In this document: piece by piece, positions 2,808-55,241 of the stretch
Layout of the letters: every line of letters begins with the position of its first letter
Numbering within the stretch: position 1 is the first letter of the stretch
From: Candidatus Aadella gelida
GTDB lineage: Bacteria > Omnitrophota > Gorgyraeia > Tantalellales > Tantalellaceae
DNA length: 55,242 nucleotides
Assembly (NCBI GenBank): GCA_030765205.1
Contig: JAVCDB010000017.1
Location: 1 to 55,242 of the forward strand
Direction: 5' to 3'
Program-made: the position numbers and the translations under genes
The notes under the pieces: model-generated
Database searches by the model: none
Told to the model about the DNA's origin: nothing
The model's input: only the letters and a program-made list of their open reading frames with translations

Positions 2808-2914
2808 CCCCCACCGCCCGATTTTGTACCGTTTCTTTGCTTCAAAGCTATCGCTTTGAACAAAGGCCCCTGTAAGCGTAACAAGGTAGCATAACACGGT
2901 GTGCTAATTTGTGA

Positions 2915-2966
2915 GGCGCCGAGGACGTAATGTCCGAGGTGTGTCGAAACCTCCGTGTTTCGACGA
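2915..2966 (+). repeat. 52-nt dispersed repeat, copy 1 (GGCGCCGAGGACGTAATGTCCGAGGTG.GTCGAAA.CTCC..GTTTCGACGA).
   Basis: It is near-identical to 20902-20953, with the first 27 nt identical and about 4 mismatches overall. It contains the hairpin GTCGAAA/TTTCGAC. Confidence 0.8.
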
Positions 2967-5437: not shown

Positions 5438-5911
5438 ATGAACAAAGAAAAAGAAAAAGGTATTAGGTATTGCCTGCGCCTGTTATCAGTCAGGTCTCGA
5501 AGTGTGCATGAAGTCAGAGAAAGGTTGATAGGAAAAGAATATACTGCTGAGAATGCGGATGAGATCCTTGAAGAACTTAAAAAAGAAGATATATTGAACG
5601 ATAAGAAATTTGCGGAAGAATGGATAGATACTCGGCTTCGAACGACTCCTAGATCTGCCCGTGTATTGAGGCTGGAGTTAACTCAAAAGGGAGTGTCTTC
5701 GGATATTATTGATGAGGCCTTTTTGAAGAGAGAAGATGATCTCAAGGATTCGGTGGTAGCTGAGGAGATTGCGCGAAGAAAAATGAAAAGTATGGGGAAC
5801 CAACCCAAAAGTGATGTTAAAGTGAAACTGTTCAGGTTTCTTACGGGTAAAGGGTTTGATCCGGAAATATCAGAAGAGATAATATGTAGGGTTTTTGAAA
5901 ATGAATTCTAA
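5438..5911 (+). CDS. recX: Recombination regulator RecX.
   Basis: It has RecX-like repeats (RYCLRLLSVRSRSVHEVRERL) and lies immediately downstream of recA. Confidence 0.85.
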   Translation: MNKEKEKGIRYCLRLLSVRSRSVHEVRERLIGKEYTAENADEILEELKKEDILNDKKFAEEWIDTRLRTTPRSARVLRLELTQKGVSSDIIDEAFLKREDDLKDSVVAEEIARRKMKSMGNQPKSDVKVKLFRFLTGKGFDPEISEEIICRVFENEF

Positions 5912-8621
5912 TGAGATAAGAGAAAATTTTTTAAGATTTTTTGAAGAAAAGGGACATACCAGAGTCTCTAGTGATCTTCTTGTGCCAAGGAATGATCCTA
6001 CTCTGCTTTTTACCGGAGCGGGTATGAATCAGTTCAAGGATCAGTTCATGGGTAAGAATATCACGTATAAAAGAGCCGCGTCTTCCCAGAAATGTATAAG
6101 AACAGGGGATGTTGAGAATGTTGGAAAAACACCTCGGCATCATACTTTTTTCGAAATGCTTGGCAATTTTTCTTTTGGAGATTATTTTAAGAAAGAAGCT
6201 ATCTTTTGGGGTTGGGAATTTATGACAAAAGAGATGGGGATCCCGGAAGAGAAATTATGGATATCGGTGTATGAAGAAGATGACGAATCCTATGCGATAT
6301 GGAAGGATGAGGTTAAAATACCCGAGGAATGTATAGTGAAGCTTGGCGCGGAAGATAATTTCTGGCCTGCAGACGCTCCCAAAAACGGACCCAATGGTCC
6401 ATGCGGTCCGTGTTCTGAGATATTTTATGATTGGGGAATCTCGTATGGATGCGGGAAGAAAGGATGCAATCCGGCATGTGATTGCGGTAGATTTGTCGAG
6501 ATATGGAATCTTGTTTTCACTGAATTTGAAAGGAAAAGTGACGGATCTCTCGAGCCCCTTCCCAGTAAGAATATCGATACGGGGATGGGACTTGAAAGGA
6601 TAACCGCGGTCAAGCAGGGTGTGTACACTAATTTTGGGACAGATCTTTTTGTTCCGATATTGGACAAGATAAAAGAAGAATTAGGAGCGTTAAAGGATAG
6701 CGTAGCGGAAAACGAGACATATTTGATGGCCGATCATGTACGTGCGGCTGTTTTCGCGATATGTGACGGTGTCTCGCCGTCAAATGAGAAGCAAGGGTAT
6801 GTGATACGAAAACTCATAAGGCGCGCATATCTTAAAGGCAGAGAACTGGGAAAACCGTTCCTGTATGGCGTGGTACCGGTTATAGCTGATAAGTTCAGAG
6901 AAGAGTATCCGGATCTTTATGATAAAAGAGAACATGTAGCGGCTATAGTTAGAGAGGAAGAGCAGCGGTTTTGTGAAACTTTAAAATCGGTCATGCCCAT
7001 AATGGAAGACATGCTTTTCGAGGCAGGCAAGGTATTGACGGGTGAGAAGGTATTCAAATTGGTTGATACGTACGGTATGCCGTTTGAGATCATAGATAGT
7101 ATATGCGCGGAGAAAGGTATTAGCCCGGATGTTAAAGGCTTTGAAGTATTGATGGAAAACCGAAAAGAAGAGTCGCGCAAGGGGAGCGATATTTCCTGCG
7201 ATTTTATATTTAAGCCAGATAGTTTTAATGATGCTCCCAGACCGGAGTTCTCGGATGAAATGCCGTTTGATGCCAAGTTAGCCTTCATTTTAAAAAACGG
7301 CGCAGAAGTCAAAAAAATAGATAGCGGAGATTGTGTAGAGATAGTGACATCCCCTCAGAGTTCGATTCTGTACGCGGAGTCCGGGGGACAAATTGGAGAC
7401 TCGGGTAAGATAATCAAGTCGGGTGCGAGGATGGATATAGTCAATACGGTTATTTCGGACGGTAGGAAAATACTTCTGGTTGTTGTGAAAGAAGGGTCTT
7501 TTTCTTCGGGAGATGATGTTACTGTAGACCTTAAAGACGAAAAGAAAAATAATACCGCTAAGAATCATACGGCTACACATCTTATTCAGGCGGCTCTTAG
7601 GCAGGTTCTTGGACATGGAGTGAAACAATCCGGATCTTTTGTGAATGATAAAAGGCTTAGATTTGATTTTACGCATATGAGGAAACTTTCGCACAAAGAA
7701 ATAGTTGAAGTGCAGGATATGGTCAATGGATGGATCGAGGCAGGAATTTCTGTCAGCAAGGAGAATAAATCGATTGACGAAGCGAAAAAGGAAGGTGCTT
7801 TATCCTTTTTTGGTGAGAAATACGGGGATACGGTACGCGTGGTTACTGTAGGCGGACATTCTAAAGAATTATGCGGCGGCACACATGTGGATAATACAAA
7901 GGATATAGGCGTGATAAAGATCACCGGAGAAAGTTCGGTCGCTAGCGGGATCAGGAGGATAGAAGCTGTCACTTCCGATAATGCTGTTCAATGGATCAAG
8001 GATTCTGTGCGTAATTTATTGGATGAGTATAAAGAAATATCAGGTAGAGATAAGATGGAGTTTGATGAGAAGGAACAGAATATGATAGATGGTATCTTAG
8101 GCGGGAAGACCGTTATAGACGCAGAGGTTGTACATGATGTTGAGGAGGAGATAAGACCTTACCTTCTTAAAAAGGTAGAAGCATTGAAAAAGGAAATTAA
8201 GAAAAAGCAGAAGCAGGAAAGCGCGGATGCTTTCGGTTCAGTCAGAGAAATAACGGACGGGTTTGTTGAGTCCGCACAGACGATAGGGAATATACGTTTA
8301 ATTTCGGGAATATTAGAAAATAGCGAAGCCGCTGTCCTGCGCAAAGCTGTCGGTCATGCCGGCAGGAAGGCTGATAAGGCGGTAATGTTCTTAGGTGCCA
8401 GGAATAACGGTAAAGTGTATCTTATCTGTGCCGTAGATAAAGCTCTTACGGAGCTTGGCATAAACGCGAAAGAGATAATGGATTCAGTCTCCGAAGATAT
8501 AGACGGAGGCGGAGGAGGCAATAATGTTTTTGCGCAGGCCGGTGGTAAAAAACCCGAAGGTCTTGAAGCTGCCATGAAAAAGGTAGAAGAAATATTGATC
8601 AAGGTTAACTCAAAAAGTTAG
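5901..8621 (+). CDS. alaS: Alanine--tRNA ligase.
   Basis: The N-terminus IRENFLRFFEEKGH, the motif TGAGMNQFKD, the editing domain HTATHLIQAAL and a C-terminal DHHA1-like GGGG motif are present. I prefer the ATG at 5901 over the TTG at 5895. The gene overlaps the recX stop. Confidence 0.97.
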   Translation: MNSNEIRENFLRFFEEKGHTRVSSDLLVPRNDPTLLFTGAGMNQFKDQFMGKNITYKRAASSQKCIRTGDVENVGKTPRHHTFFEMLGNFSFGDYFKKEAIFWGWEFMTKEMGIPEEKLWISVYEEDDESYAIWKDEVKIPEECIVKLGAEDNFWPADAPKNGPNGPCGPCSEIFYDWGISYGCGKKGCNPACDCGRFVEIWNLVFTEFERKSDGSLEPLPSKNIDTGMGLERITAVKQGVYTNFGTDLFVPILDKIKEELGALKDSVAENETYLMADHVRAAVFAICDGVSPSNEKQGYVIRKLIRRAYLKGRELGKPFLYGVVPVIADKFREEYPDLYDKREHVAAIVREEEQRFCETLKSVMPIMEDMLFEAGKVLTGEKVFKLVDTYGMPFEIIDSICAEKGISPDVKGFEVLMENRKEESRKGSDISCDFIFKPDSFNDAPRPEFSDEMPFDAKLAFILKNGAEVKKIDSGDCVEIVTSPQSSILYAESGGQIGDSGKIIKSGARMDIVNTVISDGRKILLVVVKEGSFSSGDDVTVDLKDEKKNNTAKNHTATHLIQAALRQVLGHGVKQSGSFVNDKRLRFDFTHMRKLSHKEIVEVQDMVNGWIEAGISVSKENKSIDEAKKEGALSFFGEKYGDTVRVVTVGGHSKELCGGTHVDNTKDIGVIKITGESSVASGIRRIEAVTSDNAVQWIKDSVRNLLDEYKEISGRDKMEFDEKEQNMIDGILGGKTVIDAEVVHDVEEEIRPYLLKKVEALKKEIKKKQKQESADAFGSVREITDGFVESAQTIGNIRLISGILENSEAAVLRKAVGHAGRKADKAVMFLGARNNGKVYLICAVDKALTELGINAKEIMDSVSEDIDGGGGGNNVFAQAGGKKPEGLEAAMKKVEEILIKVNSKS

Positions 8622-10580: not shown

Positions 10581-11189
10581 ATGATAGGAATAATAGATTA
10601 CGGATCAGGAAATTTAAGAAGTGTATATAATGCGTTCCGATATCTCGGAGAGGACGCTAAAATATGCGTGTCTTCTGATGAACTTAAAAATGTTGATAAA
10701 ATCATCTTACCTGGGGTAGGGTCATCTAAAGATGCTATGGAAGGTCTTTCTCAGAGGGGTTTTATCGATGTTTTGAAGAAGGATATTGCAGAAGGTAAAC
10801 CTTTCCTGGGGATATGCCTGGGGCTTCAGCTTCTTTTTGAAAAAAGTGAAGAATCCGGAGGTACCGAGGGCCTTGATCTGATAAGAGGCGAAGTAAAACT
10901 GTTCCCAAATGATACCGGCCTGAAAGTTCCGCAGATAGGATGGAACACGGTAGAGTTTAGAAAAAAAGAATGTCCTATATTCAAAGGGATTGATAGCGGG
11001 ACGTATTTTTATTTCGTGCACTCATATTACTGTGATAGCGAAGAAGCGGATTATGTCGCCGGAGTTACGGAATATAGCAGGAGGTATACTTCTGCTATCT
11101 GGAAAGATAATGTTTTTGCGGTACAGTTTCACCCTGAAAGATCTCAGAAAAGTGGTCTTAAAATTTTAAAGAACTTTATTGAATTATAA
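10581..11189 (+). CDS. hisH: Imidazole glycerol phosphate synthase, glutamine amidotransferase subunit.
   Basis: The sequence begins MIGIIDYGSGNLRSV, has the GICLGLQ catalytic Cys and the motif FHPE. I prefer the ATG at 10581, which has an AAGGA RBS, over the TTG at 10566. Confidence 0.95.
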   Translation: MIGIIDYGSGNLRSVYNAFRYLGEDAKICVSSDELKNVDKIILPGVGSSKDAMEGLSQRGFIDVLKKDIAEGKPFLGICLGLQLLFEKSEESGGTEGLDLIRGEVKLFPNDTGLKVPQIGWNTVEFRKKECPIFKGIDSGTYFYFVHSYYCDSEEADYVAGVTEYSRRYTSAIWKDNVFAVQFHPERSQKSGLKILKNFIEL

Positions 11190-13067: not shown

Positions 13068-13185
13068 AGATATATGCGCCATACACGACAGGTTCTGAGG
13101 ACACTTTTCTCGGGGGAAGTGTAAACCTATCCTTCAAAATGTCCCCAGAATATATGTTCATTTTTATGCTGGATGAGGAGAAAAT

Positions 13186-13572
13186 ATGAAATTAATAGAC
13201 AGATTAAATTTTGACGAAAAAGGGTTAATACCGGCTATTATACAGGATGCTGCAAGTGGCAAGATGCTTACCTTGTGCTATATGAATGATGAGGCGTTGA
13301 AGAGAACCTTGGAAGAAAAGAAGATATATGTTTTCCGCAGGTCTAAAGGCAGAGTAATGATCAAGGGAGAAACTTCGGGATGTGTGCAGACCGTCAAAGA
13401 ATGTTATATTGACTGCGCGGAAAATTCCGTACTTTTCAAAGTTAATCAGGACAGAGCTGCCTGTCACGAAGGGTATTTCAGCTGTTATTTTAGAAAAATA
13501 GACGATAATGGGGATGAAGTTATCGAGGAAGAACGCGTATTTGACCCAAAAACGGTCTACAAAGATAAATAA
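13186..13572 (+). CDS. hisI: Phosphoribosyl-AMP cyclohydrolase, monofunctional with no HisE domain.
   Basis: The motifs GLIPAIIQD, ETSG and ACHEGYFSCYFR are present. At 128 aa, only the cyclohydrolase domain fits. Confidence 0.93.
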   Translation: MKLIDRLNFDEKGLIPAIIQDAASGKMLTLCYMNDEALKRTLEEKKIYVFRRSKGRVMIKGETSGCVQTVKECYIDCAENSVLFKVNQDRAACHEGYFSCYFRKIDDNGDEVIEEERVFDPKTVYKDK

Positions 13573-13575
13573 ATT

Positions 13576-15051
13576 ATGTATTATCCAAGTAAAGAAAAAT
13601 TCATAGAATTGTCCGATAAGGGGAACGTTATTCCGGTTTATAGCGAGATAATGGCAGATTTTGATACCCCGCTATCGGCATTTCTTAAAATAGATGAAAG
13701 TGATTTTTCATATCTATTAGAATCTGTTGAAGGTGGAGAGAATCTAGGCCGGTATTCCTTTTTGGGGAGCAACCCTTCTCTTGTTATCAAAAGCAGAGGG
13801 AATAAAATAAAAATAGTGCGTGACGGAAAGACCGAAGAATATTCTACGGAAACGGATCCTGTTGAAGAGGTAAAGGAACTGATGAAACAGTTCAAATTCG
13901 TCGGTACGGAATCGTTACCAAGATTTTGCGGAGGGCTTGTCGGGTATATGGGTTATGATATGGTGCGTTTTATGGAAAATATCCCTGATAATAATCCTGA
14001 CGAGTTCGTTATGCCTGACATGCATATGGTGCTCACCGACACTATACTTATCTTTGATCATGTCGATCATAAAATAAAAGTGGTTTCAAATGCCATAGTG
14101 GAAGGCTCTCCGGAAGAGGCGTACAAAACGGCTTGTTCAAAGGTAGACAGAATAATAGAAAAACTTAAAGCAGATATAAAAAAACCCGAAGCAGGGTCTA
14201 GTGCAAATACTCCGGGAGAAGTGAAATCTAATTTTTCCGAAAAAGACTTTTGTGAAAGTGTGGAAAAGGTCAAAGAATATATACGAGCCGGAGATATTAT
14301 ACAGTTGGTGCTTTCTCAAAGATTCAAGAAACATACGGAGGCGGATGCATTCTCTATATACAGAGAACTAAGGTCAATTAATCCATCGCCCTATATGTAT
14401 TATCTTAAGTTCGGGGATTATAAGATCATAGGATCTTCGCCAGAGATATTGGTAAGATGTGAGGACGGTGTAGCGGAAGTAAGGCCTATTGCAGGGACGA
14501 GGCCGCGAGGGAAAACTGAAGAGAAAGATAAAGAGCTAGAAAAGGAACTTTTAGCAGATCCAAAAGAGCGAGCCGAACACATAATGCTGGTGGATCTAGG
14601 ACGTAATGATATAGGCAGGGTATGCGATTATGCGAGTGTCGAGACAAAAGAAGTTATGCATATAGAAAAATATTCGCATGTTATGCATATTGTGAGCAAT
14701 GTTACGGGAAAACTAAGAAAAGATAAAGATATTTATGATCTCATAAGAGCGACATTTCCGGCAGGAACGGTTACTGGAGCTCCTAAAGTAAGGGCTATGG
14801 AGCTTATAGATGAACTTGAGAATTCGAGACGCGGACCTTATGCAGGATGTGTGGGGTATGTAAGTTTTTCGGGTAACATTGATATGTGCATCACGATAAG
14901 AACGATAGTTATGCGTGAAAAAAATGCGTATATCCAGGCCGGAGCAGGTATTGTTCTGGATTCTGATCCGAAAAATGAATATAAGGAGACTGTGAACAAG
15001 GCTAAAGCTATGATGAAAGCTATTGAAGCCGCGGAAAAGGGGATAGAGTGA
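13576..15051 (+). CDS. trpE: Anthranilate synthase component I.
   Basis: The motifs LLESVEGGENLGRYSF, PSPYMYY, GTRPRG and GPYAGCVGY are present. Confidence 0.95.
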   Translation: MYYPSKEKFIELSDKGNVIPVYSEIMADFDTPLSAFLKIDESDFSYLLESVEGGENLGRYSFLGSNPSLVIKSRGNKIKIVRDGKTEEYSTETDPVEEVKELMKQFKFVGTESLPRFCGGLVGYMGYDMVRFMENIPDNNPDEFVMPDMHMVLTDTILIFDHVDHKIKVVSNAIVEGSPEEAYKTACSKVDRIIEKLKADIKKPEAGSSANTPGEVKSNFSEKDFCESVEKVKEYIRAGDIIQLVLSQRFKKHTEADAFSIYRELRSINPSPYMYYLKFGDYKIIGSSPEILVRCEDGVAEVRPIAGTRPRGKTEEKDKELEKELLADPKERAEHIMLVDLGRNDIGRVCDYASVETKEVMHIEKYSHVMHIVSNVTGKLRKDKDIYDLIRATFPAGTVTGAPKVRAMELIDELENSRRGPYAGCVGYVSFSGNIDMCITIRTIVMREKNAYIQAGAGIVLDSDPKNEYKETVNKAKAMMKAIEAAEKGIE

Positions 15052-17435: not shown

Positions 17436-17456
17436 AGTGAACAGTGAGCAGTGAAT
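17436..17456 (+). repeat. Tandem heptamers AGTGAAC AGTGAGC AGTGAAT.
   Basis: Three in-phase 7-nt units start 4 nt after the trpC stop. The complementary unit type ACTGTTC occurs at 43511-43538 and 27174-27180. Confidence 0.75.
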
Positions 17457-17566
17457 GGTAGAGATTGCATCACTTCGCTCACAATGACGTTCTGGGCAAA
17501 TAGTGTAATAGTTAAAAAGGAGAAAGGTTCGTCGAAGGGGATTAGAGTATCGGTCAATTATACGGT

Positions 17567-17594
17567 TCACGAATCACGGATCACGGATCACGAT
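17567..17594 (+). repeat. Tandem heptamers TCACGAA TCACGGA TCACGGA TCACGAT ending 4 nt before the trpF ATG.
   Basis: There are four in-phase 7-nt units. No Shine-Dalgarno sequence lies between the array and the ATG at 17599. Confidence 0.85.
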
Positions 17595-17598
17595 CATA

Positions 17599-19439: not shown

Positions 19440-19511
19440 AGGTGTTAGGTTCTAGGTGCTAGGTGATAGATTAGAGCCTACAACCTAAAACCTACAACCT
19501 AAAACCTAGGA
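19440..19511 (+). repeat. Inverted heptamer arrays: AGGTGTT AGGTTCT AGGTGCT AGGTGAT, a loop, then CCTACAA CCTAAAA CCTACAA CCTAAAA CCTAGGA.
   Basis: The left arm is 19440-19467 and the right arm 19477-19511. The arms are complementary (AGGT pairs with ACCT). The element fills the trpB-trpA spacer, and its last unit supplies the purine-rich pre-ATG sequence. Confidence 0.85.
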
Positions 19512-19516
19512 AAGAT

Positions 19517-20329
19517 ATGAATAGAATAGACGAGACATTCAGAAGGCTTCGTAAAGAAAAAAAGAAAGCGTTTATTGCCTATATAACGGCCGGGGATCCG
19601 ACCTTTCCGGTATCCGAAAAAATAGCGTTAACTTTAGCGGAAACTGGAACGGATATAATTGAGTTGGGGATACCTTTTTCAGATCCTTTAGCTGATGGAC
19701 CGACTATTCAAAAAGCCGTGCAGAGGTCGCTCAAGAATGGATGTACCGTTAAAAAAGTATTCACTATGGTAAAGAGCCTGCGCAGGAAAATACAAACACC
19801 ATTGGTTTTTATGACATATTACAATATTGTTTACAATTATGGATTAGAAAAATTTGTAAAAGACGCTAAAAAATCCGGTGCAGACGGAATAATAATCCCG
19901 GATCTTCCTATGGAAGAATCCGGAGAATTTAAAAGTATTGCAGATGCTGAAGATTTTTGTCTGATAATGCTGACTGCGCCTACCACACCCGCGGAAAGGT
20001 TCCGGAAGATAGCGTCTAAAAGCCGAGGATTCATATATCATGTCTCGCTCACCGGAGTAACCGGTACAAGGGACGCTGTAAACACAGGACTTGCTAAAAA
20101 TGTGCAGAAGTTAAAGAAGTTGACCAAAAAACCTATATGTGTAGGGTTTGGCGTCTCGGGAGCTGAACAGGCGAAAAAAATAAGTCGAATGTGTGACGGT
20201 GTTATAGTAGGAAGCGCGATAATCAAAATAATAGAAAAGAACTTGAACAGAAAGAAAGATATAGCGGGGAAGATAAAGGTTTTCTCCAAGACTCTCGCCA
20301 AAGCAGTTCACGGAGAAGAACGATCGTAG
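19517..20329 (+). CDS. trpA: Tryptophan synthase alpha chain.
   Basis: The motifs ELGIPFSDPLADGPTIQ and GFGVS are present. Confidence 0.95.
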   Translation: MNRIDETFRRLRKEKKKAFIAYITAGDPTFPVSEKIALTLAETGTDIIELGIPFSDPLADGPTIQKAVQRSLKNGCTVKKVFTMVKSLRRKIQTPLVFMTYYNIVYNYGLEKFVKDAKKSGADGIIIPDLPMEESGEFKSIADAEDFCLIMLTAPTTPAERFRKIASKSRGFIYHVSLTGVTGTRDAVNTGLAKNVQKLKKLTKKPICVGFGVSGAEQAKKISRMCDGVIVGSAIIKIIEKNLNRKKDIAGKIKVFSKTLAKAVHGEERS

Positions 20330-20467
20330 ACCATTGACCGTAGACAGGGAATGACTGATGTGCAAATTGAGGTGTGAATAGTAATAGCAGACAAAAGACC
20401 GTAAAACAAAACTAAAGATCTTTTCTTTTCAATATTTTTCTAAAAATATTGTTCAATAGTCAAACAG
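20327..20467 (+). repeat. Heptamer-array element: TAGACCA TTGACCG TAGACAG, the conserved core ATGACTGATGTGCAAATTGAGGTGTGAA, and a weak right arm TTCAATAGTCAAACAG.
   Basis: The trpA stop codon TAG is the first triplet of the first unit. The core at 20351-20378 matches the core at 27108-27135. Confidence 0.7.
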
Positions 20468-20901: not shown

Positions 20902-20953
20902 GGCGCCGAGGACGTAATGTCCGAGGTGCGTCGAAATCTCCCGGTTTCGACGA
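20902..20953 (+). repeat. 52-nt dispersed repeat, copy 2.
   Basis: It starts 1 nt after the ruvX stop and is near-identical to 2915-2966. Confidence 0.8.
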
Positions 20954-22916: not shown

Positions 22917-23070
22917 ATGACTATAGACCATTGACAATGGACCATAGACTTAGAATGACCGATGTGTCAACTTATGGAACTATAAATCGAGGCAATTGAA
23001 TCTTAGACTTTTTAAAATTTTTCAAAGAAAAATCTTAGGCAATAGTCGATAGTCAATGGTCAATAGTCAA
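22917..23070 (+). repeat. Inverted heptamer-array element: ATGACTA TAGACCA TTGACAA TGGACCA TAGACTT, the core ATGACCGATG, a spacer, then AATAGTC GATAGTC AATGGTC AATAGTC.
   Basis: The left arm is 22917-22951, the core starts at 22955 and the right arm is 23041-23068. GTCAATGGTC is present in the right arm and in the reverse complement of the left arm. Confidence 0.85.
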
Positions 23071-23111
23071 TATTTTGACGTGATTTAGGAATTTATTAAC
23101 TGGGAGGGAAG

Positions 23112-27069: not shown

Positions 27070-27166
27070 TAAACCATTGACTATAGACCATTGACCATTG
27101 ACAGGGAATGACCGATGCACAAAGTGAAAGGTGAAGGGAACGGGTCAAGTCAATAGTCTATTGTCC
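27070..27166 (+). repeat. Inverted heptamer-array element: TAAACCA TTGACTA TAGACCA TTGACCA TTGACAG, the core ATGACCGATGCACAAAGTGAAAGGTGAA, then GTCAAGTCAATAGTCTATTGTCC.
   Basis: The left arm is 27070-27104, the core 27108-27135 and the right arm 27144-27166. Confidence 0.85.
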
Positions 27167-27173
27167 AAAGATT

Positions 27174-27208
27174 ACTGTTCACGAATTACGAATCACGAAC
27201 TACGTATT
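27174..27208 (+). repeat. Tandem heptamers ACTGTTC ACGAATT ACGAATC ACGAACT ACGTATT.
   Basis: There are five in-phase 7-nt units. The unit types match those at 43511-43559. Confidence 0.8.
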
Positions 27209-29143: not shown

Positions 29144-29236
29144 TAGGTGTTAGGTTCTAGGTTTTAGGTTATAGGTTTTGGAGTGATAGCCCCTCGTCTC
29201 CTAACACCTATAACCTAAAACCTATAACCTGTTTTT
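29144..29236 (+). terminator. Inverted heptamer arrays: TAGGTGT TAGGTTC TAGGTTT TAGGTTA TAGGTTT, a loop, then TAACACC TATAACC TAAAACC TATAACC, followed by a T5 run. Likely an intrinsic terminator or strong hairpin after der.
   Basis: The left arm is 29144-29178 and the right arm 29202-29229, and the arms are complementary. TTTTT lies at 29232-29236. The unit family is the same as at 19440-19511. Confidence 0.6.
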
Positions 29237-30396: not shown

Positions 30397-30474
30397 CATG
30401 AATACACAGGAACATAAGAACGTGCATATTATGGCGCTTCCCATAGCGCTGATAAAACTGTACCTCCTTAAGGG

Positions 30475-30523
30475 CAGGCTACGATTACTAGAACTTGCAA
30501 CCAGAAGGTAGCCTGACTTTTTT
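30475..30523 (+). terminator. Candidate intrinsic terminator: stem CAGGCTAC/GTAGCCTG followed by T6.
   Basis: The stem pairs 30475-30482 with 30508-30515 and TTTTTT lies at 30518-30523. The loop is large (25 nt), which lowers confidence. Confidence 0.45.
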
Positions 30524-30531
30524 ATAATTCG

Positions 30532-30580
30532 CGGGGGAGAGTCTAACGGGTGTTCCGTTTTGATTCCCCCCGTTTTTTTT
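30532..30580 (+). terminator. Intrinsic terminator: G/C-rich stem CGGGGGA/TCCCCCCG with inner stem AACGG/CCGTT, followed by T8.
   Basis: The hairpin spans 30532-30572 and TTTTTTTT lies at 30573-30580. It is followed by GC and A8, forming a T8-GC-A8 palindrome. Confidence 0.7.
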
Positions 30581-30599
30581 GCAAAAAAAAGTCCGGTAA

Positions 30600-30780
30600 A
30601 CCTGTATAAAGTTTCCTCCCTGACAAATTTTTTAACGCTTTTTATATAGCTTTCGAAAGGGCGTTAAATAAACTCACCCTCGCATAGCTCGGGTTCAGAC
30701 ATATTTAACGCCTTCTTCTTTCAAAAGCTATATAAAAAACTAAAATTTGTGACAGGGAACCCTAGAAACTTTATACAGGT
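30600..30780. repeat. 181-nt near-perfect long inverted repeat. Candidates are a structured ncRNA or a MITE-like element.
   Basis: The ends ACCTGTATAAAGTTTC (30600-30615) and GAAACTTTATACAGGT (30765-30780) form a perfect 16-bp pairing. The arms stay complementary inward with small indels (TCCCTG-ACAAATTTT, TTTTTATATAGCTTT, GGCGTTAAATA). The central loop is about 30672-30700. Confidence 0.8.
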
Positions 30781-31024
30781 GCTAAACAGTGTTTTTGAGA
30801 TGAGAGGGGAAAAAGTAGGATGAGTACTCCGTGCCTAGGGCGAAGAGCTTGCCTCGGAATACTGCTTTCCAAGCAGTATTTTGTGTCCATTCCAATGGGA
30901 AGGAATATCCACGGCGCGGTTATTCCTGGAAAAGGGACAAAGTAGTCTCTTAATCTTTGATCAGGTGTCCTTATATGTGCTATATCATACTATTGACTAT
31001 AAATATTATATGTGTTAGACTTTT

Positions 31025-32017: not shown

Positions 32018-32059
32018 CCGTGTCTCGGGGCTTGTGGCCCGTGTCCCGTTGTGCGGATC

Positions 32060-32087
32060 ACGAACCACGAATCACGAATCACGAAAC
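32060..32087 (+). repeat. Tandem heptamers ACGAACC ACGAATC ACGAATC ACGAAAC ending 2 nt before tRNA-Pro.
   Basis: There are four in-phase units. They are preceded by CCGTGTC-type 7-nt units at 32018-32059. Confidence 0.85.
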
Positions 32088-32089
32088 AT

Positions 32090-32166
32090 CGGGACGTGGC
32101 GCAGTCTGGTAGCGTACTTGTCTGGGGGACAAGGGGTCGCCGGTTCGAATCCGGCCGTCCCGACCA
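32090..32166 (+). tRNA. tRNA-Pro (anticodon GGG), with encoded CCA.
   Basis: I folded the cloverleaf by eye. The acceptor is CGGGACG/CGTCCCG, the anticodon stem CTTGT/ACAAG, the loop CTGGGGG with anticodon GGG and G37, and the T arm GCCGG-TTCGAAT-CCGGC. Confidence 0.9.
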
Positions 32167-32325
32167 TTCTTCTTCGCCCTTCAATAAGCGGGCTATCTGG
32201 TAGGGCTACGAAGGAACAAGTTCTAGATACGAAGCAAGCGAAGAAGAATGTCTCTACGAAGTTGTACCATTGTTTACTTTTTGAACAGCGAAGTAGGGCA
32301 AAAACAAATAGCATAAGGAGATGAT

Positions 32326-41469: not shown

Positions 41470-42183
41470 ATTTCCACAAAAAAAAGGTTACAGAACATTC
41501 TGGCTCATGCCGGTATAGCTTCACGAAGACAGGGTGGTGACCTGATAGAACGTGGAGAGGTTAAGGTAGATGGCAGGGTAGTGAGGGAAAAAGGATTCAG
41601 GGTAGATCCCTCGGAACAAAAGGTATCTGTGGGCGGCAAGATAATTCAGGAGGAGAAAAAATATTATTTTCTTCTAAATAAACCAGTGGGTGTTGTGTCT
41701 ACCGTAAAAGATGCTCACGCCAAGAAGAAGATAACGGATTTTTTTTGGGATATAGATGCCCGACTTTATCCTGTAGGAAGATTAGACAAGGATACTACAG
41801 GGCTTATAATCATCACAAATGATGGAACACTTACCAATTTGCTTGCGCATCCTAGGTACGAGATAGATAAAGAGTATGAGGTACGTGCTAAGCCTCCTGT
41901 TGAGGATAAGGATCTAAAGAACTTGGAAAAAGGATTGCTTCTAGAAGATGGAAAGACTACACCATGCATTATAAAAAAAATAAGACAAACCGCTGAAGAA
42001 GGTCTATACAGCATTAATTTACATGAAGGAAGAAACCGTCAGATAAGACGAATGTTTGGAGCTTTAGGATCAAAAGTCATAGGGCTGAAAAGGGTAAAAT
42101 ATGCCGGACTTACCCTTAAAGGTCTTCCAGAGGGAGAGTATAGAGAGCTTACGGAGAAGGAAGTTGAAAAGTTAAAAGAGTAG
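41470..42183 (+). CDS. RsuA/RluB-family pseudouridine synthase with an N-terminal S4 domain. The start codon is non-canonical or unresolved.
   Basis: The catalytic motif YPVGRLDKDTTGLIIITNDG is present. The S4 motif RLQNILAHAGIASRR is encoded in-frame at 41485-41529, upstream of the first canonical start (GTG at 41581). The ATT at 41470 lies 9 nt after an AAGGA. Confidence 0.7.
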   Translation: MSTKKRLQNILAHAGIASRRQGGDLIERGEVKVDGRVVREKGFRVDPSEQKVSVGGKIIQEEKKYYFLLNKPVGVVSTVKDAHAKKKITDFFWDIDARLYPVGRLDKDTTGLIIITNDGTLTNLLAHPRYEIDKEYEVRAKPPVEDKDLKNLEKGLLLEDGKTTPCIIKKIRQTAEEGLYSINLHEGRNRQIRRMFGALGSKVIGLKRVKYAGLTLKGLPEGEYRELTEKEVEKLKE

Positions 42184-42186
42184 AGT

Positions 42187-42401
42187 TTGACTATAGACAA
42201 TTGACAATTGACTATTGACATAGAGTGACCGACAAGAGAAATTAGAGTCAAAGAGTCAGGAAGATTGGAAGGCAGAGGTCAGTGGGCAAAGGGTAGGGGG
42301 GACGAATGGCGAGGACTATGCGCTTTGCGATTAGCCGTTAAAAAGTCAATAGTCCATAGTCAATAGTCAATGGTCTATTAAGAAGGATTACGAATTACGG
42401 A
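42187..42401 (+). repeat. Inverted heptamer-array element: TTGACTA TAGACAA TTGACAA TTGACTA TTGACAT, a GTGACCGAC core and purine-rich spacer, then AGTCAAT AGTCCAT AGTCAAT AGTCAAT GGTCTAT, followed by TTACGAA TTACGGA.
   Basis: The left arm 42187-42221 starts 4 nt after the rluB stop. The right arm is 42344-42378. The TTACGAA-type units lie at 42388-42401, just before the nadC ATG at 42411. Confidence 0.9.
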
Positions 42402-42410
42402 AGAACAATT

Positions 42411-43304
42411 ATGCAAACAGACCTAGATAAAAAACGAGTTGACGCGATAATACGGTTCGCATTGAAAGAGGATATCTGGACGGGGGACGTAACGTCACAA
42501 GCGGTCTTGGATAAGTTTCTTAAGATGTGCGCGGTTATAGTTTCTCGCGATAAAGGAATTGTCTGCGGGATGGATATAGCTGAAAGAGTGTTCTCGGCGG
42601 TAGAATGCAGTCTGCAGTTCCGCCCTTTAGTTAAAGACGGGGATGAGATCGAGCCCGGTCAGGAGATAGCGTTTATCGAAGGTGAAGCTCAGGCTATACT
42701 TAGAGGCGAAAGAACAGCATTAAATTTTATGGGTTTTTTGAGCGGAGTAGCTACTAAAACAAGATATATGGTGGACGCGGTAGGCGAACATCCGGTAAAG
42801 ATATATGATACTCGTAAAACCATACCTTTGCATAGATATCTAGAAAAATATGCCGTTACCGTGGGAGGTGGCCATAATCACCGCAAAGGCTTGTGGGATA
42901 TGGTTCTCATAAAAGATAATCACTTAAGAGCGTTTGGTATGCAGATGAAATATAACGACAATAAACAGGTAATAGACGAAATATTGATACGCGCGAAAAA
43001 GAACGTTCAGAAGAACATAAAGATCGAGATAGAGGTAGAAAATATTAAAGAATGTGAATATGCTTTAGAACACGAACCTGATGTTATTATGCTGGATAAT
43101 ATGACACCCGAAGCTATTCGAAAAGCGGTAATTATAAGGAAAGAAAAAGGACTTGAAGGTAAAGTTGTTTTTGAAGTGTCAGGCGGCATAGGTCCGGATA
43201 ATATTAAGTCTTACGCAGCAACGGGTGTGGAAATAATCTCAACAGGCGCCATAACCGGAGCGATCAATCCTATAGATTTCAGCCTAGAGACAGTTATCAG
43301 ATAA
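42411..43304 (+). CDS. nadC: Nicotinate-nucleotide pyrophosphorylase (quinolinate phosphoribosyltransferase).
   Basis: The motifs GERTALNFMGFLSGVATKT, DTRKT, GGGHNHR and IKDNH are present. Confidence 0.95.
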   Translation: MQTDLDKKRVDAIIRFALKEDIWTGDVTSQAVLDKFLKMCAVIVSRDKGIVCGMDIAERVFSAVECSLQFRPLVKDGDEIEPGQEIAFIEGEAQAILRGERTALNFMGFLSGVATKTRYMVDAVGEHPVKIYDTRKTIPLHRYLEKYAVTVGGGHNHRKGLWDMVLIKDNHLRAFGMQMKYNDNKQVIDEILIRAKKNVQKNIKIEIEVENIKECEYALEHEPDVIMLDNMTPEAIRKAVIIRKEKGLEGKVVFEVSGGIGPDNIKSYAATGVEIISTGAITGAINPIDFSLETVIR

Positions 43305-43559
43305 TAGTTCGTAGTTTGTAGTTCATAGTTAGTAGTGGAGGTTTAGAAACTAGAGGCTAGAGGTCAGAAGGAAGAAAGACGAAGGACGTTAATTTTCGGG
43401 CAATAGTAGACTATAGACGATTGACCATAGACTATAGTCTGAGATTCATAAAAAGACAATAGTCAATTGTCGCATAGTCAAAGGTGTTTCAATAGGATCG
43501 GTCAATATATACTGCTCACTGTTCACTGTTTACTGTTCACAAATCACGAATTACGAAAC
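43305..43559 (+). repeat. Intergenic spacer built almost entirely of several heptamer families.
   Basis: The families are TAGTTCG-type x5 (43305-43339); CTAGAGG/GAAGAAA/GACGAAG purine-rich x6 (43350-43391); TAGACTA TAGACGA TTGACCA TAGACTA opposed to CAATAGT CAATTGT ... CATAGTCAAAGG (43407-43483); and ACTGCTC ACTGTTC ACTGTTT ACTGTTC ACAAATC ACGAATT ACGAAAC (43511-43559), which abuts the uvrB ATG. Confidence 0.9.
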
Positions 43560-43560
43560 C

Positions 43561-45531
43561 ATGGATAAATTCCAACTTGTCACTGACCTTAAACCTGCCG
43601 GTGATCAACCTAAAGCTATAGACCGTATAGTCCGTTCCATCGAGAAAAAAAATGGATTTCAGACTCTTTTGGGTGTTACGGGAAGCGGTAAGACTTTTAC
43701 AGCGGCCAATATTATCGAGCAGATCAATCGTCCGACTTTAGTGCTGTCCCATAACAAAACTTTAGCCGCACAGCTTTTTTCTGAGTTTAAGATACTTTTT
43801 CCCAACAATGCTGTTGAATATTTCGTAAGTTATTACGATTATTATCAGCCTGAGGCATATGTACCTCAAACCGATATGTATATCGAAAAAGACGCTTCGA
43901 TAAACGAGGATATCGATCGGTTAAGACTCTCCGCGACAAGTTCTATCTTTTCAAGAAAAGATGTTATTATAGTTGCAAGCGTGTCCTGTATATACGGACT
44001 AGGAAGTCCCGAAGATTATTCTAATATGCTTATTACTGCCAGAAAAGGTGAAGAGATAACAAGGGAAGATATACTTAAGAAACTTGTGGATATACAGTAT
44101 GACCGCAATGATACCGATCTTGCCAGAGGACGTTTCAGGGTAAGGGGTGATATTATAGAAGTGTTTCCGGCATATAAAGAAACAGCTGTGAGAATTGAGT
44201 TTTTCGGTGACGAGATCATGCGTATCGCGGAAGTTCATCCGGTATCGGGAGATATACTTACTGAACTTGAAAAAGTGTCAATATACCCCGCAAAACATTT
44301 TGTTACTACCGATGACAAAATAGAAAAAGCTATAGGTACTATTTCCGAGGAACTTGACACGAGACTTAAAGAACTGAAAGACCAAGGGAAACTTCTTGAA
44401 GCGCAGCGGCTGGTATCGCGTACAAGATATGATATGGATATGCTTAAAGAAGTGGGGTATTGTAGCGGGATAGAGAATTATTCAAGACATATTTCCGCAA
44501 GGCCTCCGGGCAGCCGTCCCTGGTGTCTTTTAGATTATTTTGAGGATGATTTTCTTGTTATGATAGACGAATCACATGTTGCCCTGCCGCAGCTTAGAGC
44601 TATGTATAACGGTGACCAGGCCAGGAAAGGGACACTTGTGGACTATGGGTTCCGCTTACCTTCAGCTCTCGATAACAGGCCGCTCAAGTTCGAAGAGTTT
44701 CTGGATTTGTCGGATCAAATACTGTTCATGTCGGCCACACCGGGTGAATATGAAATGCAGAAGAGTTCTGCGGTCGCCGAGCAGATAATACGTCCAACCG
44801 GTCTGGTAGATCCTCCAATAACCGTGCGCCCTACGGAAGGGCAGATCTATGATCTAATGGAGGAAGTATTGAAACGGGCTTCCAAAGGTGAGAGGACACT
44901 TGTTACTACGCTTACTAAACGTATGGCGGAAGAACTCACACGGTTTCTAAAAGAACGTAAGCTGAGAGTGAGATACCTGCATTCGGAGATAAACGTGCTT
45001 GATCGAGTGGAGATTATTAGAGATCTTCGGTTGGGAAATTTTGATTGTCTTATAGGTATAAATCTTCTTAGAGAAGGCCTTGATATACCGGAAGTTTCTC
45101 TTGTAGCTGTCTTGGATGCGGATAAAGAAGGCTTTTTGAGAAGTTGGTCCTCGCTTATTCAGGTAGCCGGCAGAGCTGCCAGGAACATTAACGGTGAAGT
45201 CATTATGTACGCAGATAAGATAACAGGATCTATGAGAAAAACTATAGATATTACCGAGACAAGGAGAAAGAAGCAGACAGAATTCAACGAAAAGAACGGG
45301 ATCGAACCTTCGACAATAATTAAAGCTATATCCGGCGGGATAGAATCATATAAGCGTGCTAAAGAGATAGTTAAAGAAGTCACAGGGGAAAATGATAAAG
45401 AATATGATCTGAATGAAGCGATAGCTCAGCTAGAACGCGATATGGAAGACGCCGCTAGGAACTTGCAGTTCGAAAAAGCTATTGTTTGTCGTGATCAGGT
45501 ATTGAAACTTAAGAAAATGACGAAAGAATAG
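43561..45531 (+). CDS. uvrB: Excinuclease ABC subunit B.
   Basis: The Walker A motif [10 protein letters not shown], the beta-hairpin region [10 protein letters not shown], helicase motifs and a C-terminal UVR domain are present. Confidence 0.97.
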
Positions 45532-45848: not shown

Positions 45849-46801
45849 GAGTAATTGTTACTGGTGGGACAGGATTTATTGGAAGGAATCTCGTAAAAGA
45901 GCTTAATTCCCAAGGGTATGATGTAACCTGTCTGGTGAGGGAGACCAGTAACACGGATTTATTGGAAAATTTGGATGTAGACTTTGTTGTATGTGACATT
46001 ATGGACGAGCAGGAGATTAAGAACGTTTTTAATCGTATCCGGCCTGATATAGTTATACATTGTGCAGCTTCCGTGATGGAAAAAGATAGAGAAAAATTGA
46101 TGGATGTTAACGTTACTACTACGAAGAATATTGCTCAAGCGTCTTATGAACATGATGTCGGAAGGTTTGTTTATTTAAGTTCAGTCTCGGTTATCAGTGG
46201 GAATCCGAAAGTTCCGCTTGAAGAAGATCTTCCTTATTCAGCAAGTAACGGATATGGGTTCTCTAAAATAGAAGCAGAACGCATGGTTAAAGAATATCGA
46301 AAAAAAGGGCTAAAAACAGCTATTCTAAGACCGTGTATGGTGTACGGGAACGACGAACCTCATCTTTTGGACAAGCTCTTTCGGTACGCTGAAAAAAGGT
46401 TTATCCCTGTTCTGAATGATCCCGTCATGAATTCAAAGCTGCAGCTTGTACATGTTTCCAATGTAGTAGAAGCCATTATTATGGCTATGAACAAAGAGGA
46501 AGCACTTACCGATACATTTATGGTGGCGGATAAAGAGATAATTACAATGAAACGGTTCGTTGAGATTGTCACCGAAGAGATGATCGGGAAATCTCCATTT
46601 GTTATCCCGGGGTGGATAGTAAAAATAGGTAAGATCATACCTTTTTTAAGACGAAAGATGGAACGGACTTTTAAAGATCGTGTGTATGACATATTGCGAG
46701 CCGTGGATGTTTTAGGATATGATCCTAAAATATCTACCGAAGAGGGACTCAAGATGACGGTTAGACATTGGAAGAGTAAGAGAAAAGACCATAGACTATA
46801 G
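45845..46801 (+). CDS. NAD-dependent epimerase/dehydratase family (extended SDR) protein.
   Basis: The Rossmann motif VTGGTGFIGRNL and the catalytic YGFSK (YxxxK) are present. Confidence 0.9.
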   Translation: MRVIVTGGTGFIGRNLVKELNSQGYDVTCLVRETSNTDLLENLDVDFVVCDIMDEQEIKNVFNRIRPDIVIHCAASVMEKDREKLMDVNVTTTKNIAQASYEHDVGRFVYLSSVSVISGNPKVPLEEDLPYSASNGYGFSKIEAERMVKEYRKKGLKTAILRPCMVYGNDEPHLLDKLFRYAEKRFIPVLNDPVMNSKLQLVHVSNVVEAIIMAMNKEEALTDTFMVADKEIITMKRFVEIVTEEMIGKSPFVIPGWIVKIGKIIPFLRRKMERTFKDRVYDILRAVDVLGYDPKISTEEGLKMTVRHWKSKRKDHRL

Positions 46802-46897
46802 ACAATGGACTATTGACTTGGTTTGACCGATACGCAAACTCGGGGTGAAATATTAATCTTTTCAATAGTCAATAGTTAATTGTCTAACGTGGTCTAA
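46785..46897 (+). repeat. Inverted heptamer-array element: AAGACCA TAGACTA TAGACAA TGGACTA TTGACTT, the core TTGACCGATACGCAAACTCGGGGTGAA, then CAATAGT CAATAGT TAATTGT CTAACGT GGTCTAA.
   Basis: The left arm 46785-46819 overlaps the last five codons and the stop of the SDR gene. The core is 46823-46849 and the right arm 46863-46897. Confidence 0.85.
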
Positions 46898-54726: not shown

Positions 54727-54912
54727 TAGGCCGAAACTGCTGTCCCTGAGGAGAATTATAACTGTAACCCAGAGGCGCAAGCATTGCCCACTCAAACAGT
54801 CCTCACCCCGTCGTTTTGCTTTGCAAAACAAAGCAGCGGGGTTGCGGGAACTCGTGTACAATGCTCACACCCCTGAGTTACAAAGTTAGTGCACGGGGAC
54901 GGGATAGCCTAC
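54727..54912 (+). ncRNA. Candidate structured RNA with 6S-RNA-like architecture: a rod with a large central bubble. It may instead be a structured 3' UTR.
   Basis: The helices I paired by eye are TAGGC/GCCTA (54727-31 / 54907-11), CTGTCCC/GGGACGG (54740-46 / 54896-902), TGTAAC/GTTACA (54763-68 / 54877-82), CAGAGG/CCCCTG (54770-75 / 54870-75), AGCATTG/CAATGCT (54780-86 / 54859-65), CCCCG/CGGGG (54806-10 / 54837-41) and TGCTTTG/CAAAGCA (54817-23 / 54829-35). The bubble has 19 nt (54787-54805) opposite 17 nt (54842-54858). The region looks clearly more GC-rich than its surroundings. Confidence 0.3.
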
Positions 54913-55006
54913 ATGTATTTAAATGGGGCAATATAAAGAGTAAAGGGAATAGGAATCTTGTGAGGATTGGTCCGACTTTGTTGGACTTAATGAGTGATAT
55001 TCATAT

Positions 55007-55067: not shown

Positions 55068-55143
55068 GCCGGCGTAGCTCAGCTGATAGAGCATCTCACT
55101 TGTAATGAGAATGTCGGGGGTTTGATTCCCTCCGCCGGCTCCA
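55068..55143 (+). tRNA. tRNA-Thr (anticodon TGT), with encoded CCA.
   Basis: The acceptor is GCCGGCG/CGCCGGC, the D arm GCTC...GAGC, the anticodon stem TCTCA/TGAGA, the loop CTTGTAA and the T loop TTTGATT. Confidence 0.9.
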
Positions 55144-55156
55144 TATGATCATATAT

Positions 55157-55241
55157 GGGGAGATAGCGAAGTGGTTAAACGCAACAGACTGTAAATCTGT
55201 CGGCTCAGCCTTCGAAGGTTCGAATCCTTCTCTCCCCACCA
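55157..55241 (+). tRNA. tRNA-Tyr (anticodon GTA), class II with a long variable arm and encoded CCA.
   Basis: The acceptor is GGGGAGA/TCTCCCC, the anticodon stem ACAGA/TCTGT, the loop CTGTAAA, the long variable arm CGGCTCAGCCTTCG and the T arm GAAGG-TTCGAAT-CCTTC. Confidence 0.9.

Follow-up and report, generated by a model that had tools for sequence, protein, structure and literature searches.

The subject of this analysis is a set of tandem heptanucleotide repeats that lie between the genes of a bacterial contig, JAVCDB010000017.1 from the assembly of Candidatus Aadella gelida (GCA_030765205.1), all 55,242 nt of which are referred to below as the window. Every gene in the window is co-directional. 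The genes trpD, trpC, trpF, trpB and trpA were confirmed by Pfam, and arrays of 7-nt units fill the trpC-trpF and trpB-trpA spacers, while others stand around rluB, nadC, uvrB and further genes downstream. A preliminary description made from the letters of the sequence had claimed that at least six spacers share one architecture, in which a few units of the type TWGACNA begin at the stop codon of the upstream gene and, after a spacer, are answered by units of the complementary type TNGTCWA. One of the six lies between rluB and nadC, at 42187-42378.

Heptamer arrays in the spacers of the window

The gene set consisted of long plus-strand open reading frames (ORFs) with identities assigned by Pfam, and the remaining 4,447 nt were taken as intergenic. 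Tandem Repeats Finder (TRF) called 21 period-7 arrays across the window, of which 18 fall in intergenic DNA, against 0.13 in its dinucleotide shuffles, and three in the 50.8 kb of coding DNA, against 1.5 in shuffles, which is chance level; the comparison of intergenic with coding DNA proposed in the preliminary description thus shows an excess on the intergenic side only. The same holds for the autocorrelation that it proposed, since the match frequency in spacers is raised at lag 7 (0.336) and lag 14 (0.331), while spacers at any other lag, and coding DNA, stay near 0.26. The intergenic heptamer arrays are a non-random feature composed of several families, at least five in the window's spacers, and about one array in two shares its spacer with a complementary array. 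The single architecture claimed for six spacers is found in five of them; the sixth, 20327-20467, is a weak member, and the family concerned, with the unit logo N-A-T-W-G-A-C (one position free, another A or T; hereafter NATWGAC), is only one of the at least five. Its members, called here E1 to E6, are as follows.

E1, 20327-20467, no strand assigned: weak member with three left units, the conserved motif AGGGAATGACTGATGTGCAAATTGA and about 1.5 right units.
E2 left arm, 22917-22952, no strand assigned: begins 2 nt past the rpe stop and is followed by the motif AATGACCGATG (22953-22964).
E2 right arm, 23036-23075, no strand assigned: TAGTCAA in 5.3 copies.
E3 left arm, 27073-27103, no strand assigned: ACCATTG in 4.3 copies, then AGGGAATGACCGATGCACAAAGTGA.
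E3 right arm, 27141-27166, no strand assigned: short, GTCAATAGTCTATTGTC.
E4 left arm, 42187-42224, no strand assigned: five NATWGAC units, from 3 nt past the rluB stop (42181-42183).
E4 right arm, 42344-42378, no strand assigned: five complementary units, which pair with the left arm.
E5, 43407-43483, no strand assigned: compact inverted pair, TAGACTA in 4.4 copies and, further on, AATAGTCAATTGTC, nested in the nadC-uvrB spacer of 256 nt.
E6 left arm, 46785-46820, no strand assigned: covers the end of the SDR gene (its final five codons and TAG), then TTTGACCGATACGCAAAC.
E6 right arm, 46862-46897, no strand assigned: includes TCAATAG in 3.3 copies.

E4 reads as it had been described: the left units run TTGACTA, TAGACAA, TTGACAA, TTGACTA, TTGACAT, an interior of about 120 nt unrelated to the units follows, and the right units run AGTCAAT, AGTCCAT, AGTCAAT, AGTCAAT, GGTCTAT. 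Two further details of the preliminary description agree with the sequence. The TAG of trpA (20327-20329) is the opening triplet of the first unit of E1, and at 46785-46801 heptamer units make up the end of the SDR gene, its last five codons together with the TAG, the encoded protein being 4-5 residues longer than its orthologues (...KSKRKDHRL against ...KSKR or similar). The order GAC...GTC of the two arms prevails over GTC...GAC by 6:0 in the window. The remaining families comprise two further inverted pairs, F1 and F2, and a number of single arrays.

AGTGAAC array, 17436-17455, plus strand: 2.9 copies directly past the trpC stop codon.
CACGGAT/CACGAAT array, 17562-17596, plus strand: five copies, ending 2 nt ahead of the trpF ATG.
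F1, TAGGTTN/AACCTAN family, 19440-19508, no strand assigned: TAGGTNN in 4.3 copies, then AACCTAN in 4.6 copies (a perfect 14-nt double unit).
ACGAATT/CACGAAT array, 27181-27208, plus strand: four copies, start-proximal, upstream of a CDP-alcohol phosphatidyltransferase gene.
F2, TAGGTTN/AACCTAN family, 29144-29230, no strand assigned: TAGGTTT in 5.1 copies and, further on, ACCTATA in 3.6 copies, in the der-plsY spacer, with a T5 run after it.
ATCACGA array, 32057-32085, plus strand: four copies, ending 4 nt ahead of a tRNA gene (32090-32163).
TAGTTCG array, 43305-43336, plus strand: 4.6 copies beginning directly at the end of the nadC stop; this family forms inverted pairs in the relative L089, introduced below.
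ACTGTTC array, 43511-43557, plus strand: 4.3 copies, then ATCACGAATTACGAA, ending 3 nt ahead of the uvrB ATG.

The trpB-trpA spacer is 81 nt long and is mostly occupied by the F1 hairpin. ACTGTTC at 43511 is the complement of AGTGAAC at 17436. Arrays of the CACGAAT type stand directly upstream of the trpF and uvrB starts, and a fragment of about two such units lies upstream of nadC (42388). The tRNA gene at 32090-32163, which scores 62.5 bits in Rfam, sits within a listed ORF (32034-32324), and the ORF is therefore spurious.

Folding potential of the inverted pairs

Each element was folded with RNAfold and compared with 200 dinucleotide shuffles. The z-scores obtained were -3.9 for E2 (22917), -2.3 for E3 (27070), -4.7 for E4 (42187), the whole of which has a minimum free energy of -53.2 kcal/mol, -6.2 for E5 (43407), -4.6 for E6 (46785), -5.1 for F1 (19438) and -8.0 for F2 (29142), so that seven of the eight inverted pairs lie between -2.3 and -8.0; E1 (20327-20467) folds no better than chance (z = -0.25). 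The predicted stems span 25-35 bp, and roughly each seventh nucleotide in them is left unpaired. The long imperfect stem anticipated in the preliminary description is accordingly predicted for E2-E6 (z from -2.3 to -6.2) and not for 20327-20467, and as far as such models go the hairpin potential of the inverted pairs is real. That the arms are inverted and reverse-complementary, as had been claimed, is borne out by the energy of the left-right duplexes in the NATWGAC family, about -30 kcal/mol on average against -6.6 for a reversed, non-complemented control, and on reading the letters GTCAATGGTC occurs both in the right arm of E2 and in the reverse complement of its left arm.

Several known classes of element were considered and set aside. 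Rfam gave only three tRNAs over the window at the gathering threshold, and its covariance models gave no match in 42100-43600 at E up to 1; a known RNA family or riboswitch is ruled out on these grounds. CRISPR, with repeats of 23-50 nt and unique spacers of similar length, had already been rejected in the preliminary description, and rightly, the units being 7 nt long and contiguous. Consensus scans for sigma-70 promoters and for intrinsic terminators showed no excess over shuffles and no match at the arrays, and with this result the promoter reading, suggested by the likeness of TTGACA to a -35 box, was abandoned.

Relatives, public sequence and known heptamer repeats

At least 11 contigs, from several samples assembled by JGI, Logan and ENA, carry a gene for the same NadC as the window, and the population is present in lake samples (JGI 3300025669, 3300005916, 3300005918; SRR5581654). 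Eight of these were compared and are 99.8-100% identical, with zero gap openings across the arrays, and the single-nucleotide polymorphisms among them are few and leave array length unaffected. An assembly artefact, named in the preliminary description as a way in which it could fail, is ruled out by this agreement of independent assemblies. Several contigs from other assemblies end inside arrays, as expected where a sequence is repeated elsewhere in the genome.

All named relatives of this NadC belong to Candidatus Omnitrophota, which together with synteny places the contig in that phylum and upholds the earlier remark that the host does not look cyanobacterial. A scan of GTDB genomes with UvrB revealed no close relative, and syntenic relatives were reached through NadC homologues. 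The gene order hom-thrC-apgM-ask-leuA-valS-rluB-nadC-uvrB-...-SDR-queH-tilS-ftsH is kept in six of them. One, L089 (GCA_043813915.1, 80% NadC identity), has 14 period-7 arrays in 21 kb, and its rluB-nadC spacer carries the NATWGAC family as a 5+5 inverted pair around a loop that cannot be aligned with that of the window. Another, L092 (GCA_043822885.1, 78% NadC identity), has 10 arrays of partly different families: a GCGAGGG array in rluB-nadC, a plain hairpin, GC-rich and with a T-tract after it, in nadC-uvrB, an inverted GTCACCN/GGTGACN pair in SDR-queH, and a GACCATA array followed by TTGACCGATGTGCAAAC in ask-leuA, where the spacer of the window is only 24 nt long. In three more (L093, L218 and L219, 71-73% NadC identity) the genes overlap or nearly abut and there are essentially no arrays. 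The comparison of orthologous spacers that the preliminary description had suggested has thus yielded both presence or absence and exchange of families. It follows from these differences that the arrays are a lineage-level expansion with fast turnover and are not confined to the window, confinement being another outcome which would have spoken against the preliminary description.

Past two tRNA genes at the end of the window (55068-55238) lies an island (L216, 11486-20861) that encodes an integrase of the phage type, a protein with Prim-Pol, PriCT and AAA_25 domains and many further ORFs without family assignment, and which to judge from its gene content is likely to be a mobile element integrated at a tRNA. 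Arrays are absent from its spacers, about 970 nt in all, although the chromosomal density would predict about four.

Outside this lineage, a metagenome scan with the unit GACNATW in 3.4 copies returned at least 120 stretches, at 32-69% GC, from soils, lakes, rumen and gut, and exact protein look-ups put some of the loci in Acidobacteriota, Bacteroides thetaiotaomicron, Parabacteroides merdae, Chloroflexota and Omnitrophota. Among the matches listed, 80 loci were analysed for orientation: a GAC-type array is followed by a GTC-type array within 400 nt in 18, and the reverse order occurs in five. Where both genes flanking an inverted pair were called in these listed loci, they are co-directional in nine cases, convergent in two and divergent in none, and the pairs nearly fill their spacers. 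This breadth has to be read against control scans of a viral collection, in which GACNATW gave 76 stretches, composition-matched units 91, 40 and 45, and a period-8 version of the unit 29, all of these counts exceeding a rough chance estimate of well under one match. Since the control units are as frequent in viral contigs, a universally conserved TWGACNA element is rejected, the breadth reflects a generic tendency of heptamer arrays to arise, a mutational origin is favoured, and the sequence of the unit is not safely read as a conserved signal. In Bacteroides thetaiotaomicron, identified by an exact protein match, a pair consisting of TTGACAA in four copies and, further on, GTCAATT (L109, 4209-4313; L156, 8602-8706) fills the spacer of co-directional genes from 8 nt past the stop to about 5 nt before the start. 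An unrelated uncultured bacterium found through UvrB (L026, 6131-6203 and 6303-6360) has an inverted GGATGGC/GCCATCC-type pair in one spacer, and CCAGAGC and CTCAAGT arrays which, close to where a valS-like gene starts, apparently fall within coding sequence.

The record of intergenic heptanucleotide repeats goes back to 1990 for cyanobacteria; Xanthomonas, Burkholderia and Beggiatoaceae were added later, and we know of no accepted function. The cyanobacterial short tandemly repeated repetitive (STRR) sequences were reportedly described by Mazel et al. in 1990, and their units are said to be CCCCAGT (STRR1), TTGGTCA (STRR2) and CAACAGT (STRR3). Further background on STRR is cited elsewhere (PMC4692102; PMC5088731), and a Nostoc locus (L080) was inspected for the comparison. 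Common to both are tandem heptanucleotide units in intergenic DNA, several families per genome, and units one substitution apart (GACCATT in the window against GACCAAT of STRR2, GAACAGT against CAACAGT of STRR3). In contrast to STRR, the arrays of the window are short (3-5 units) and degenerate, many of them are convergent inverted pairs abutting stop codons, and the host belongs to Omnitrophota and is not a heterocystous cyanobacterium; in Nostoc, few paired G-rich repeats have been reported (PMC4692102). No canonical tandem dimer of STRR1-3, TAACTGA or GGGAATC was found in the window in any rotation, on either strand, with up to one mismatch. STRR nevertheless stand as the nearest analogue, as the preliminary description had proposed, with units one substitution away. 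The literature searches brought up no report of intergenic heptanucleotide repeats in Omnitrophota.

The GGGAATC repeats of Xanthomonas (Rehm et al. 2015) are strongly over-represented intergenically; 70-75 pairs of convergent arrays stand on opposite strands of one spacer with stem-loop potential, orthologous sites usually agree in type, single or inverted, though not in length and sequence, and most are transcribed (PMC4692102). The convergent inverted layout of heptamers is therefore not new, having already been described there (PMC4692102), and it recurs in E2-E6, F1 and F2 of the window. The Xanthomonas unit is G-rich, forms G-quadruplexes and dominates alone, whereas the units of the window are AT-rich, lack G3 tracts, are unable to form G-quadruplexes and belong to at least five families. 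For the TAACTGA arrays of marine Beggiatoaceae, some Cyanobacteria and Bacteroidetes, which have 2-6 copies a few nucleotides upstream of starts and are hardly ever inverted (one indirect repeat in 170 sets), RNA-binding proteins have been proposed (MacGregor 2015; PMC4679880). They are resembled by the start-proximal CACGAAT/ACGAATC arrays at 17562, 27181, 42388 and 43540, of which the CACGAAT-type ones end 2-4 nt before trpF and uvrB; the unit differs, however, and one array of the window precedes a tRNA and not a coding gene. In Nostoc, eight copies of GAC(C/T)AAT upstream of recO are reported to have a regulatory effect (bioRxiv 10.1101/2022.06.06.494920). Heptamers are the most abundant class of long simple-sequence repeats (SSRs) and are ascribed to polymerase slippage, as Mrazek (2007) is cited in PMC4679880; under the definition given there (5-11 nt, head-to-tail, beyond chance) the arrays of the window are long SSRs, with 18 found against 0.13. 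Haemophilus influenzae has heptameric SSR phase-variation switches, upstream intergenic arrays in which RNA structure and RNase III are involved (PMC12721329). Those switches vary in copy number within populations, whereas the arrays of the window are constant in eight assemblies and flanked by housekeeping genes. The repetitive extragenic palindromic (REP) sequences of proteobacteria, finally, stabilise upstream mRNA. They are imperfect palindromes of 20-40 nt and fixed sequence, doublets of which (REPINs) are spread by REP-associated tyrosine transposases (RAYTs) (PMC3116915). Like REPs, the related bacterial interspersed mosaic elements (BIMEs) and REPINs, the arrays are palindromic DNA scattered outside genes, where the neighbouring genes are co-directional or convergent, and their transcripts could form hairpins; unlike them, they have arms built of tandem 7-nt repeats that vary in number and order, and the window showed no RAYT.

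The spacers hold other features as well. A dispersed repeat of about 50 nt, GGCGCCGAGGACGTAATGTCCGAGGTGYGTCGAAAYCTCC, occurs in several spacers (window 2905-2954 and 20902-20950; L089 about 10998-11050 and 13456-13505), with 90-95% identity within and between the two genomes. A conserved, structured-looking element, GGGGACACYTTTCC...GTGTRAACCTAKCC...GATGTCCCCAGAATATAT, stands upstream of different genes in three genomes (window 13095-13160, L089 15150-15215, L092 2357-2430); the window and L089 agree at 81% over 74 nt, and Rfam gave no match to it at the gathering threshold. A repeat of about 200 nt (TGTCACCCAAAGGYGCGAGTATTCC...GTCCTCACCCCGTYG...) is found at 54727-54990 of the window and in two spacers of L089 (13373-13580 and 15843-16050), which also has a MITE-like repeat of 186 nt in two spacers (5822-6006, 13636-13818; 87% identity; MITE, miniature inverted-repeat transposable element). 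The unusually long gene-free stretch of 628 nt at 30397-31024, likewise without an Rfam match at the gathering threshold, contains a long imperfect inverted repeat, GTTTCCTCCCTGACAAATTTTTTAACGC ... AAAATTTGTGACAGGGAACCC, and two ordinary hairpins with T runs, one at about 30470-30530 and one at about 30535-30590. Ahead of rluB, the segment 41457-41580 encodes the N-terminus of RluB, its S4 domain, in frame (KKRLQNILAHAGIASRR..., matching L089). The stretch from the preceding stop to the S4-domain sequence has an A8 run but none of ATG, GTG and TTG; a start codon of an unusual kind could account for it, as could a frameshift or an error in the homopolymer.

Interpretation and significance

The arrays are very probably STRR-like long simple-sequence repeats of 3-5 degenerate units, a small set of families having colonised the spacers of one Omnitrophota lineage. 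The fuller account, that slippage generates these arrays and that they form intercistronic hairpins, is put forward tentatively as the one we prefer. Slipped-strand mispairing in steps of 7 or 14 nt would enlarge and homogenise each array independently. Duplication in whole-unit steps, the signature of slippage, is indicated by several arrays in which period 14 outscores period 7, among them 19477-19508 (100% against 88%), 29200-29230 (94% against 88%) and 43305-43336 (88% against 80%). Given co-directional genes throughout the window, both arms are most likely transcribed together, and the transcript would fold into a stem of 25-35 bp with a mismatch at about every seventh position. In four of the six pairs the stem begins 3-11 nt past the upstream stop, and it ends 9-42 nt before the next start. 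Such a stem would loop out the inserted spacer as intercistronic punctuation, and could hold up 3' exonucleases or be cut by a double-strand RNase; it would not be an intrinsic terminator of the classical sort. Single arrays of the CACGAAT type, at starts and the tRNA, would form a separate positional class of the same phenomenon. Punctuation of mRNA as the role of the hairpins is somewhat more doubtful than the account as a whole.

Several observations weigh against this reading. Arms of the same element pair no better (mean -29.2 kcal/mol) than arms of different elements (-31.1), and the variable position of the unit shows no covariation between arms; compensatory evolution between the arms of an element, which the preliminary description had suggested looking for and which these duplex energies were used to examine, was thus not found, and selection on the helix would be conjectural. 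Arm complementarity exists at the level of the family only, as independent homogenisation of each array would explain. The two strands fold equally well and carry no RNA-specific G-U signature (sums of -245.9 kcal/mol for sense and -242.2 for antisense), and about half of the arrays are unpaired. No copy-number polymorphism occurs across the eight assemblies, which are consensus assemblies, so slippage is not fast on a population timescale, and slippage alone leaves unexplained why units are shared across many spacers and between genomes at 80% NadC identity. The absence of pairs from divergent spacers (0 of 15, P about 0.09) is a weak statistic, and the 3'-end function to which it points is suggestive only. 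That array RNA folds, is processed and is stabilised in vivo is something we infer.

The strongest competitor, unlikely though it seems, regards the arrays as neutral or selfish DNA, the products of slippage and gene conversion in tolerant spacers, with hairpins as a by-product and no cellular function. It would account for the rapid turnover, relatives differing in family or, in the three with overlapping genes, lacking arrays, and also for the missing element-specific covariation and strand bias. The arrays extend to the very edge of coding sequence and a little beyond it, as though they filled any permissive space, other dispersed repeats occupy the same spacers, and control heptamers are as common in viral contigs, as if such arrays arose generically. 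Less easily reconciled with neutrality are the rluB-nadC spacer of L089, where family and 5+5 inverted layout are kept at 80% NadC identity around an unalignable loop, the preference for the order GAC...GTC (6:0 in the window, 18:5 among the listed metagenome loci), a restricted vocabulary of units common to several genomes, and the retention of insertions in the trp operon.

It is considerably less probable that the arrays are protein-binding sites, the heptamer with its ATWGAC core being recognised by a DNA or single-strand binder and the inverted layout forming a dyad; a cold-shock-domain or S1-like protein with a footprint of about 7 nt would be a candidate, and the CACGAAT arrays would make up a second regulon. 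A logo with an invariant core, one W and one free position fits such a site, as does conservation of unit identity and not of pairing. Families differ by position (after stops, or just before starts and the tRNA) and are common to genomes at 78-80% NadC identity, and Csp, S1 and CsrA have been proposed for TAACTGA (PMC4679880) and the Nostoc heptamers (bioRxiv 10.1101/2022.06.06.494920). At least five unrelated families would, however, need several binders or a very loose one, relatives swap families at one junction, and the CACGAAT-type array before a tRNA speaks against a translation-specific role.

Mobility of the elements as MITEs, with heptamer terminal inverted repeats and a transposase encoded elsewhere, is very unlikely. 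Presence or absence at orthologous spacers recalls such elements, for instance the ask-leuA array of L092 with TTGACCGATGTGCAAAC against the 24-nt spacer of the window, and contigs of other assemblies break inside arrays. In 4-5 copies of the window, and in L092 too, the left arm has a short motif after it that is not a heptamer, (A)ATGACCGATGYRCAAA, and GACCGAT is enriched, five of its seven window occurrences falling in spacers where about 0.5 is expected. An all-against-all BLAST of the spacers, however, limited similarity to the arms and about 15-35 nt, the interiors being unrelated, and a MITE with a conserved core was rejected on this account; GACCGAT stands in both orientations beside unrelated families, which together with the missing shared interior makes the model weak. 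Arm lengths and unit orders also vary between copies, no target-site duplications are evident on reading the junctions, and no transposase is encoded in the window.

Classical Rho-independent terminators ending transcription units are hardly to be credited either: stable hairpins directly past stop codons, the T5 after F2, the T4 after E2 and the ordinary hairpin with T-tract in nadC-uvrB of L092 recall them, but the stems are AT-rich, 25-35 bp long and regularly mismatched, F2 and E2 are the only pairs with T runs, the scan found no terminator at the arrays, and ordinary GC-stem and T-run hairpins exist elsewhere (about 30470-30590). TrpB and trpA, moreover, are normally co-transcribed and translationally coupled, which makes a strong terminator between them implausible, and with hairpins inside the trp operon and U-tracts mostly missing the pairs are not classical terminators.

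For the biology of the group, the arrays in the trp operon rule out a simple terminator role, and STRR-like repeats are extended to the uncultured phylum Omnitrophota. The six syntenic relatives amount to a natural experiment, ranging from overlapping genes without arrays to junctions filled with them, with families swapped at some, and the TTGACAA pair of B. thetaiotaomicron offers a tractable model for the hairpin hypothesis. A bolder and improbable proposal is that in one lineage a heptamer vocabulary has replaced overlapping junctions genome-wide as a post-transcriptional punctuation code read by a dedicated protein in 7-nt register. If this were so, the pairs after stops would bring the stop near the next start and set the processing or stability of the mRNA, CACGAAT-type arrays would mark the 5' leaders of genes and tRNAs, and the 35-year-old puzzle of cyanobacterial STRR would be explained likewise.

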